64,000 nucleotides of DNA from Syntrophaceae bacterium UBA2188 (GTDB lineage Bacteria > Desulfobacterota > BSN033 > UBA1163), in NCBI GenBank assembly GCA_002327985.1, contig DCVM01000029.1, positions 12,547 through 76,546 on the forward strand, in the 5' to 3' direction. Within the stretch, counting starts at the first letter, position 1, and every line of letters begins with the position of its first letter. The notes under the pieces were generated by a model that worked only from the letters and a program-made list of their open reading frames with translations, was not told the origin of the DNA and did no database searches. The translations under genes were made by a program, and so were the position numbers. This document shows, piece by piece, positions 16,509 through 17,126 of the stretch.

Positions 16509-16790
16509 TTAACCCCCCTTTTGGTTATTTTTTGCATGAGTAAGGTTTTGTGATAGGGATGGATGGACCTGATTCGTCGCTTGATAGAGGGGGTATCTTA
16601 ACACTTCCTTCTTTTCAAAGGTGACGAGGTTGGTTGTTTCAAAAGTTGAAACCCGTGATAAGTCAAAGTGAAGCTCAACCCAGAGATAAGTGACCGCATC
16701 ATTCACATCGTCACTCCTAATAATAAAGTCATGTACATTTCCCCGCCCAAATCGAATGAGACCGGACATAAGTTCTTCATATCCCATCAT
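16509..16790 (-). CDS. small hypothetical protein (~93 aa) downstream of the c-di-GMP riboswitch-like leader
   Basis: The track ORF runs to 16898 (TTG start). The ATG at 16790 is preceded by a GAAGGGAGAG RBS. I recognise no family. Confidence 0.35.
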   Translation of the reverse strand: MMGYEELMSGLIRFGRGNVHDFIIRSDDVNDAVTYLWVELHFDLSRVSTFETTNLVTFEKKEVLRYPLYQATNQVHPSLSQNLTHAKNNQKGG

Positions 16791-16944
16791 GATAACTCTC
16801 CCTTCCAAATAGAGTGGTAAAGGTCTTTTCCATCCAGATACAGATCCATCTTGCCCTCTTTTTTCCGATGACTTTCCTGAGGTGGTACTGAAAGCCAATG
16901 ATCTTATTGATGAGGTAATTTCTCATTATTATTAAGGGATGGCT

Positions 16945-16982
16945 CCTAAAAATGAAAAGCCCGTGTTAACATTGACCACGGG
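16945..16982 (-). terminator. intrinsic terminator (expression platform of riboswitch-like leader A)
   Basis: On the minus-strand RNA there is a CCCGUG-N11-CACGGG hairpin followed by CUUUUCAUUUUU. The 5' arm is complementary to CCACGGG inside the aptamer. Confidence 0.55.
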
Positions 16983-16989
16983 CGCAAAA

Positions 16990-17080
16990 ACTTCTTCTGC
17001 TTCGGCAACCCGGCCATCCCAATAGGACCCGTGGCTTTCCGTCCCACGATCGCTCGTGGTTTGGCTTTATCGGTGAATCT
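16990..17080 (-). ncRNA. c-di-GMP-I (GEMM) riboswitch-like element A
   Basis: The minus-strand RNA reads AAAGCCAAACCACGAGCGAUCGUGGGACGGAAAGCCACGGGUCC...GGCCGGGUUGCCGAAG. This matches the Vibrio Vc2 aptamer almost motif-for-motif (GGCAAACC...GUGGGACGCAAAGCC...CGGGGUUACCGAUGG). Confidence 0.65.
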
Positions 17081-17109
17081 GACCTATTTAATTGTTTGAT
17101 TATGATATG

Positions 17110-17126
17110 AGCAATTTCAGTGCCAA
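17110..17126 (-). promoter_or_regulatory. sigma-54 (-24/-12) promoter driving riboswitch-like leader A
   Basis: The minus strand reads TTGGCACTGAAATTGCT. This is an exact match to TGGCAC-N5-TTGC, about 25 nt upstream of the aptamer. Confidence 0.55.

Follow-up and report, generated by a model that had tools for sequence, protein, structure and literature searches.

The stretch of DNA analysed here, which we call the window, consists of 64,000 nt of contig DCVM01000029.1 of Syntrophaceae bacterium UBA2188, and the locus in question is that of riboswitch A, an aptamer of the GEMM-I (c-di-GMP-I) class, which is named after cyclic di-GMP (c-di-GMP). In the direction of transcription, the locus consists of a putative sigma-54 promoter, the aptamer, an intrinsic terminator and two small open reading frames (ORFs), denoted as ORF1 and ORF2. 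All of these features are on the minus strand of the window, and all evidence on the locus is computational. Every element is present and conserved, and both ORFs are coding; from these observations we infer the sigma factor, where transcription starts, what the ligand is, in which direction the switch works and what the proteins may do. The factor required by a sigma-54 promoter is encoded in the window itself, as had been claimed in a preliminary description of the locus: rpoN lies at 1111-2562 on the plus strand and has the three Pfam domains Sigma54_AID, Sigma54_CBD and Sigma54_DBD (E down to 2e-67). Its product, RpoN, shares 87-90% identity with proteins from genomes of uncultured Thermodesulfobacteriota. 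These genomes carry the labels Syntrophaceae, Syntrophorhabdus or 'delta proteobacterium' and originate from soil, peat and groundwater. Related loci are referred to by L numbers.

The promoter element, TGGCACtgaaaTTGC, is an exact TGGCAC-N5-TTGC sequence at 17125-17111(-), with TGGCAC as the -24 and TTGC as the -12 part. The preliminary description had rightly reported a perfect element and had placed it at 17110-17126, which is one base off. Exact matches to this consensus occur twice in the 64 kb when both strands are counted, compared to 0.02 expected from shuffles; once one mismatch is permitted, the number of sigma-54 motifs in the window is not above chance. Standard sigma-54 geometry predicts a transcription start approximately 12 nt past the -12 GC, at 17097-17101 (~17099). 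The distance of ~25 nt between promoter and aptamer that had been given before fits this predicted start, and not the -12 element, which ends 36 nt before the aptamer. We then compared the promoter over an alignment of 22 distinct related regulatory regions. The pattern YGGCAY-N5-TTGCW is found in all 22, the GG and GC doublets (GG-N10-GC) are invariant, and the distance from the promoter element to the aptamer is fixed at 51 nt. Among the same 22 loci, the spacer from the -12 element to the aptamer is of three kinds that are unrelated in sequence, indels included. Of the new points of this analysis, the putative sigma-54 element is the best-supported.

The same motif recurs outside the riboswitch-bearing loci. 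Six distant loci with ORF2 homologues of 26-51% identity (L121, L123, L120, L124, L129 and L113) have unrelated leaders without the aptamer. A strict GGCAY-N5-TTGC motif lies upstream of the genes in four of the six, namely L121 (CGGCACagcaaTTGCA), L123 (TGGCACcactcTTGCT), L120 (CGGCATactatTTGCG) and L124 (TGGCATtgataTTGCT); L129 has the weaker TGGTATagataTTGCC (TGGTAT-N5-TTGC), and no sigma-54 motif was found upstream in L113, in which a response-regulator gene immediately precedes the module. The strict motif was present in at least two of these six upstream regions in 0 of 5000 shuffles. Because the motif recurs before distant homologues that have no riboswitch, sigma-54 dependence seems to belong to the gene family as such, and the riboswitch seems to be a layer added in one clade or else lost in others. 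For the leader of L121, an Rfam E-value search revealed no hidden riboswitch and the predicted fold was no better than that of shuffles. In L120 (520-560) and L124 (1265-1305), a CCGAUAAA(A/C)CCAAA string just past the sigma-54 promoter is similar to how the aptamer begins at its 5' end. Such strings may be remnants of riboswitch loss, in which case the link between sigma-54 and the riboswitch would be ancestral.

A sigma-70-like sequence, TTGGCA-16-CATAAT, overlaps the sigma-54 element in the window (17126-17099(-)). It matches 10 of 12 positions and is on the correct strand, and it could be the real promoter, with the sigma-54 consensus being a coincidence. Overlapping promoters for sigma-70 and sigma-54 have reportedly been found at glmY of E. 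coli, which counts in favour of this explanation. However, the -10-like hexamer is not conserved: taking one locus per spacer family, a sense-strand sigma-70 match is absent from L108 and L109 and reaches only 9/12 in L004. The GG and GC doublets, on the other hand, do not vary in the 22 loci and are found again in the distant homologue loci, where the flanks are unrelated. We rejected the sigma-70 reading on account of the unconserved hexamer and regard it as improbable; the sigma-54 promoter of the preliminary description is supported by the invariant doublets at fixed spacing and by the distant loci.

Further upstream, three conserved blocks on the minus strand may belong to the sigma-54 promoter. 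The first is a perfect 14-bp palindrome, AATAAATATTTATT, at 17222-17235, with its centre at ~-130 from the predicted start; across the aligned upstream regions of the 22 loci it is kept with 1-2 changes, and its position makes it a candidate enhancer (activator-binding) site. The second, GAGACAAAAAAGGTCAC, at 17201-17217 (~-118 to -102), has a core, ACAAAAAAGG, that is nearly invariant over the 22 distinct loci and flanks that vary; a role as another activator site or as a bend is conceivable. The third, TTTAAAAATCAAT, at 17149-17161 (~-62 to -50), is kept in 22/22 loci and has the same spacing in L124, a homologue locus of 30% identity. This last block is one mismatch away from WATCAANNNNTTR, the core consensus of integration host factor (IHF), and is a candidate IHF site. 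An enhancer-bend-core layout is typical of sigma-54 promoters, and the three blocks would fit such a layout here. A search for an enhancer site upstream of 17130 had been proposed; it yielded the conserved palindrome and blocks described above, and no known activator-binding motif was recognised in them. When the window is compared to L001, a locus of the same species, ORF1, ORF2 and the downstream genes are ~100% identical, and the two diverge upstream of ~-140. A far-upstream conserved block (...TTCAAATCGAAATCGCTTATGGTCTATCAAGCTGATGATGA...) of most relatives is missing in the window, where it is replaced by a second riboswitch (riboswitch B) and a DUF4124 gene.

Other sigma-54-like elements were also seen. 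The only other exact TGGCAC-N5-TTGC in the window is at 42007-42021(-), approximately 75 nt before a 127-aa protein with a PilZ domain (41549-41932(-), Pfam E=4.8e-13). The PilZ protein is a c-di-GMP receptor, so that sigma-54 and c-di-GMP are linked at a second place in this genome. We considered an upstream palindrome shared between the two promoters and rejected it, given that ATATTTCAAATAT at the PilZ promoter differs from the riboswitch A palindrome. A sigma-54-like TGGCATtggatTTGCT at 16448-16463(+) is directed antisense towards the 3' end of ORF2. The window and L001 have it, and the 22 further loci that were checked lack it downstream of ORF2; with ~0.5 matches to the loose pattern expected per window, it may be a chance occurrence. 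In L005, another exact consensus, TGGCACagggaTTGC, at 713-727 lies ahead of an unrelated 68-aa ORF, and sigma-54 promoters before small ORFs may be common in this lineage.

The aptamer lies at 17074-17000(-). It matches Rfam family RF03167 (c-di-GMP-I-GGC) with 69.2 bits against a cutoff of 59 (E=2.7e-14), and the match spans model positions 1-80 of 80. It has a GCGA tetraloop in P2 (17053-17050), and its pocket nucleotides are G 17065, A 17038 and C 17005. In 27 fetched loci of close homologues, the aptamer is on the ORF strand, ~74 nt upstream of ORF1 and ~281 nt upstream of ORF2. The element had been described earlier as riboswitch-like, and the score above the Rfam cutoff together with its retention upstream of the same gene in 27 loci supports its assignment as a GEMM-I aptamer. 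In an alignment of 21 relatives, 98.6% of the cells of the aptamer helices are paired, and the leader as a whole is very strongly conserved among relatives.

The best match to RF03167 raises the question of the ligand, and in the Rfam clan competition (clan CL00126) this family outscores its parent for the window as well as for each of the 27 related loci. Both copies in the window score best with it, riboswitch B with 72.4 bits. This counts for a ligand other than c-di-GMP, e.g. another cyclic dinucleotide, as does the fact that rare GEMM-I variants have switched to cyclic AMP-GMP (c-AMP-GMP) (PMC7266159). In the Vc2 aptamer of Vibrio cholerae, c-di-GMP is contacted by G20, A47 and C92 (PMC4744006; PMC5888326), and in the Infernal alignment the corresponding model positions 10, 37 and 75 read G, A and C in the window aptamer. 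In the consensus of RF03167, model position 37 is a G, whereas both window aptamers and all relatives have A there; the copies in the window also differ from the family in the pair G11-C36, next to pocket position 37, which is flipped to C-G by a compensatory change. We take 'GGC' to name positions 20/47/92, with model position 37 as the middle letter; read in this way, the G at model position 37 that would mark the GGC variant is absent. An A at position 20 is typical of c-AMP-GMP sensors, and the window aptamer has G at this position (17065). The agreement with Vc2 at the three contacts and the G at position 20 speak against another ligand, to the extent that our reading of 'GGC' is right, and we consider another ligand rather unlikely. 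The pocket reads as the canonical and not as the variant form, and since it reads G/A/C, we consider c-di-GMP quite likely to be the ligand.

The aptamer is followed by an intrinsic terminator (16948-16983(-)), which appears in both the minimum-energy and the centroid folds. Its hairpin consists of GCCCGUG (16983-16977) and CACGGGC (16965-16959), forming a 7-bp stem with an 11-nt loop, and is followed by the U-tract UUUUCAUUUUU (16958-16948). A terminator scan misses this hairpin, the loop of 11 nt being outside the scan range of 3-8. The hairpin and U-tract had been said to follow the aptamer directly; both are present, and a 16-nt linker separates the hairpin from the end of the aptamer. Among relatives the terminator is 98.6-99.3% paired, with G-C to G-U changes only.

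The switching sequence is CCCGUGG (16976-16982(-)), in the 5' arm of the terminator, which can pair with 16965-16959 for termination or with 17034-17028 for read-through. The latter partner is CCACGGG (17028-17034(-)), the 5' strand of P3 of the aptamer, whose pairing with CCCGUGG would be the antiterminator. The complementarity between CCACGGG and CCCGUGG had been noted before, and it holds with seven Watson-Crick pairs and two flanking G-U pairs. The accompanying claim that the terminator and the aptamer share a strand does not hold: the P3 5' strand and the terminator 3' arm are nearly identical, and these two compete for CCCGUGG. CCCGUGG is invariant in relatives and is kept in L118, a homologue locus of 41% identity. 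The antiterminator is 99.5% paired in relatives, and at pair 42-102 the changes are one-sided and keep it paired (G-U, G-C, A-U).

We then compared the two states by constrained folding. For a transcript ending past the terminator 5' arm, the antiterminator has -38.0 to -39.2 kcal/mol compared to -33.9 to -34.8 kcal/mol for the intact P3. When the 3' arm is included, P3 plus the terminator has -45.1 kcal/mol compared to -40.3 kcal/mol for the antiterminator. In this energy model, which does not include ligand binding, the antiterminator is favoured by ~4 kcal/mol before the 3' arm and disfavoured by ~5 kcal/mol after it. This modelled pattern supports a kinetically controlled OFF switch, and the terminator-type OFF logic of the preliminary description agrees with it, since the folding energies flip as such a switch requires.

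The preliminary description had assigned the switch to a 93-aa ORF. The first gene past the terminator is instead ORF1 (16777-16926(-)), a conserved and previously overlooked gene encoding a basic peptide of 49 aa, MRNYLINKIIGFQYHLRKVIGKKRARWICIWMEKTFTTLFGRESYHDGI, with an isoelectric point (pI) of 10.2, so that the 'leader' between the terminator and ORF2 is in fact coding. ORF1 is open at exactly 49 codons in more than 30 loci and is kept in further distant loci, including L113, whose DNA is ~35% different. Its variable columns are distributed over codon positions 1/2/3 as 24/20/35, and the synonymous fraction of differing codons is 0.41 compared to 0.13-0.16 in the other two frames, both of which have stops in every sequence across ORF1.

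ORF2, the 93-aa ORF, lies at 16509-16790(-) and overlaps ORF1 by 14 nt. Its strong ribosome-binding site had been claimed correctly: the Shine-Dalgarno sequence GGAAGGGAG lies inside ORF1, 7 nt before the ATG of ORF2, and the same bases encode the conserved FGRE of ORF1. Because ORF1 ends 14 nt inside ORF2 and the Shine-Dalgarno sequence of ORF2 lies in ORF1, the regulated unit is ORF1 plus ORF2, and the two are probably translationally coupled, judging from this arrangement. A 129-aa version of ORF2 started at TTG was rejected; L004-type relatives carry an in-frame TAA 21 codons before the ATG.

ORF2 had been called an orphan, which it is not. It has 23 close homologues of 63-100% identity, and a profile search over 1.8 billion representative proteins gave 54 clusters at 50% identity, all of 60-120 aa. 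The clusters share a conserved N-terminal domain of ~62 residues, which is acidic (pI 4.8 for the conserved part). Neither ORF1 nor ORF2 matched a family in Pfam, NCBIfam, PHROGs or PDB sequence searches, and a pattern scan of GTDB species-representative genomes found no relative of ORF2. AlphaFold with a 47-sequence alignment predicts a three-helix plus beta-hairpin domain at the N-terminus of ORF2, with a predicted local distance difference test score (pLDDT) above 90 for residues 1-45; with a shallow 23-sequence alignment the pLDDT is 45.

Elsewhere, ORF1/ORF2 modules adjoin genes for response-regulator-GGDEF, PilZ, HD-GYP-like and response-regulator proteins, a large PAS histidine kinase and a sigma-54 activator (L124 2087-2962; L126 1553-2745; L115 1893-5253; L114 462-3581 and 7297-8189). 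These neighbours are a contextual link to c-di-GMP signalling. Three loci, L099 (1180-1640), L104 and L106, are rearranged: the hairpin, ORF1 and ORF2 are intact, the aptamer and the sigma-54 core are replaced, and a 5' fragment of an ORF1-like gene (MRSFLVNK...) lies immediately upstream of the hairpin. In two metagenomic loci, group II intron fragments adjoin the cassette (L101 57-132 and L109 2145-2321).

Taken as a whole, we propose that the locus is a two-layer control region of a small two-gene operon in an uncultured bacterium of the Thermodesulfobacteriota. An activator-dependent sigma-54 promoter would start transcription near 17099, and the start would require a signal relayed by an enhancer-binding protein, probably via the conserved blocks at ~-130, -110 and -55. 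The 5' leader would then fold into the GEMM-I aptamer with a pocket of G/A/C as in Vc2. With the ligand bound, P3 would be held closed during the decision window, leaving CCCGUGG free for CACGGGC; the terminator would form and transcription would stop at the U-tract (OFF). With no ligand, the nascent CCCGUGG would invade P3 and pair with CCACGGG, no terminator would form, and transcription would read through into ORF1 and ORF2. In sum, the genes would be expressed only with an active sigma-54 activator and, at the same time, little c-di-GMP. That the sigma-54 promoter and the c-di-GMP OFF riboswitch both work as described is, on balance, probable in our judgement.

Several points weigh against this proposal. 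A search for GAFTGA and Walker-A motifs found no gene for an enhancer-binding protein in the 64-kb window. The ligand of the RF03167 variant is not known to have been proven. A good Shine-Dalgarno sequence is missing at the normal distance from ORF1. With 94% identity among the 21 aligned relatives, no pair of the aptamer, terminator or antiterminator has changed on both sides; because the relatives are so similar, no verdict on covariation follows, and their conservation could reflect structure or simply a recent common ancestor. At equilibrium the terminator state wins even with no ligand, and the OFF model therefore depends on presumed kinetics. The P3 3' strand is transcribed before its competitor, so that the antiterminator must invade a helix already formed. 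Lastly, L099, L104 and L106 keep the terminator and have no aptamer, and the hairpin can therefore exist without the switch.

Some of these points equally favour a reading in which the promoter and the aptamer are real and the hairpin attenuates constitutively or under some other control, or in which the switch works in reverse or at the level of translation. They are the three loci with a hairpin and no aptamer, an antiterminator without covariation among relatives, the terminator state as the equilibrium minimum without ligand, and the formation of P3 before the competitor is transcribed. Set against them are the 9 bp over which the P3 5' strand can pair with the terminator 5' arm, the order of the energies, which flips exactly as a kinetic OFF switch needs, the retention of CCCGUGG at 41% identity (L118), and the different layout of the ON type, as seen in the adjacent riboswitch B. 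We consider the attenuator and its variants unlikely, if worth keeping in mind. The preference for termination at equilibrium and the very strong conservation of the leader would also fit a different product: a terminated leader of ~150 nt could itself be the main product, acting as a c-di-GMP-bound small RNA, with control of ORF1 and ORF2 being secondary. However, the aptamer always accompanies ORF1-ORF2, with neither its orientation nor its distance changing, the ORFs are constrained at the protein level, and no complementarity to a target is known. A small RNA as the main product is thus, in our opinion, highly improbable compared to the two-layer control region proposed above.

Riboswitch B, in the region 18040-18195(-), is a second GEMM-I aptamer at 18144-18068(-), also assigned to RF03167. 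It lies behind a sigma-70-like promoter, TTGATT-16-TATGAT, and not a sigma-54 promoter. The 3' half of the aptamer itself forms the 5' arm of a 13-bp terminator stem (18083-18045), and this layout predicts an ON switch. Its gene, at 17321-17956(-), encodes a 211-aa DUF4124 protein with a signal-peptide-like N-terminus. The window has, in this way, two riboswitches of the same class and of opposite predicted logic 1.1 kb apart, and because the layout of riboswitch B is the opposite one, both designs can be distinguished in one genome. The window also contains an nhaA-I RNA at 34247-34310(+) (Rfam RF03057, 43.6 bits compared to a cutoff of 37), upstream of a 746-aa ORF (34481-36721).

The c-di-GMP-I riboswitches Vc2 and Vc1 of Vibrio cholerae and Bc1 of Bacillus thuringiensis share with the window aptamer its three helices and a GNRA tetraloop in P2, and the ligand-contact nucleotides G20/A47/C92 of Vc2 are matched by the window aptamer (PMC4744006). 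Rho-independent terminators as expression platforms of this class are documented (PMC11218506). The switch in the window is unlike Vc2, Vc1 and Bc1 in its putative sigma-54 promoter and in its target, an uncharacterised pair of small proteins. In addition, its antiterminator would use the P3 5' strand in the middle of the aptamer, and not the 3' end of P1. The c-AMP-GMP (GEMM-Ib) riboswitches of Geobacter have the same fold and come from the same phylum-level host group as the window aptamer; in them the key pocket nucleotide that reads the first ligand base is changed, whereas the window has G there (17065). That GEMM-I pockets can change ligand is documented (PMC7266159; PMC9481103).

With regard to the promoter, glnAp2 and nifH are examples of enhancer-dependent sigma-54 promoters having an upstream activator site and an IHF bend. 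The window shares with promoters of this type the TGGCAC-N5-TTGC core, the palindrome at ~-130 and an A/T-rich, IHF-like block at ~-55. Unlike them, its activator is not encoded nearby and its transcript would begin with a riboswitch. Control by two inputs has precedents of another kind. The PhoP-controlled mgtA gene, with its Mg2+-sensing leader, combines a transcription factor with a riboswitch. Tandem riboswitch logic gates combine two signals on one transcript (PMC9481103). Both of these and the window combine two independent signals, and the logic of the window would be A AND NOT B. Its first input would be a sigma-54 activator at initiation, and not a second aptamer or a sigma-70 activator.

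The GEMM-I aptamer, terminator platforms, the ON and OFF logic of the class and sigma-54 promoters are known already, and the riboswitch itself is found by a standard Rfam scan. What is new is the combination of sigma-54 with a riboswitch, the overlooked ORF1, and the sigma-54-linked ORF1/ORF2 family. In a full-text literature search of one collection, which is not proof of absence, no riboswitch was found to be described downstream of a sigma-54 promoter. The usual picture of a riboswitch is that of a controller acting by itself behind a housekeeping promoter. If our proposal is true, a well-conserved riboswitch is layered here on an activator-dependent sigma-54 promoter, expression would need both an environmental signal, received via the activator, and low c-di-GMP, and the locus would be a tractable natural example of joint control of initiation and elongation. 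A broader and more tentative view, to which we would not give quite even weight, is that of a natural 'A AND NOT B' gate over a hitherto unrecognised, widely sigma-54-linked small-protein pair (a basic 49-aa peptide and an acidic protein modelled as three-helix and without a detectable structural relative) in the c-di-GMP network of uncultured Syntrophia-like Thermodesulfobacteriota, in which the sigma-54 link would be older than the riboswitch or the riboswitch would have been lost several times. A conserved two-gene module from a little-studied uncultured lineage, with recurrent ties to sigma-54 as well as to enzymes and receptors of c-di-GMP, would offer a starting point for the roles of its proteins.

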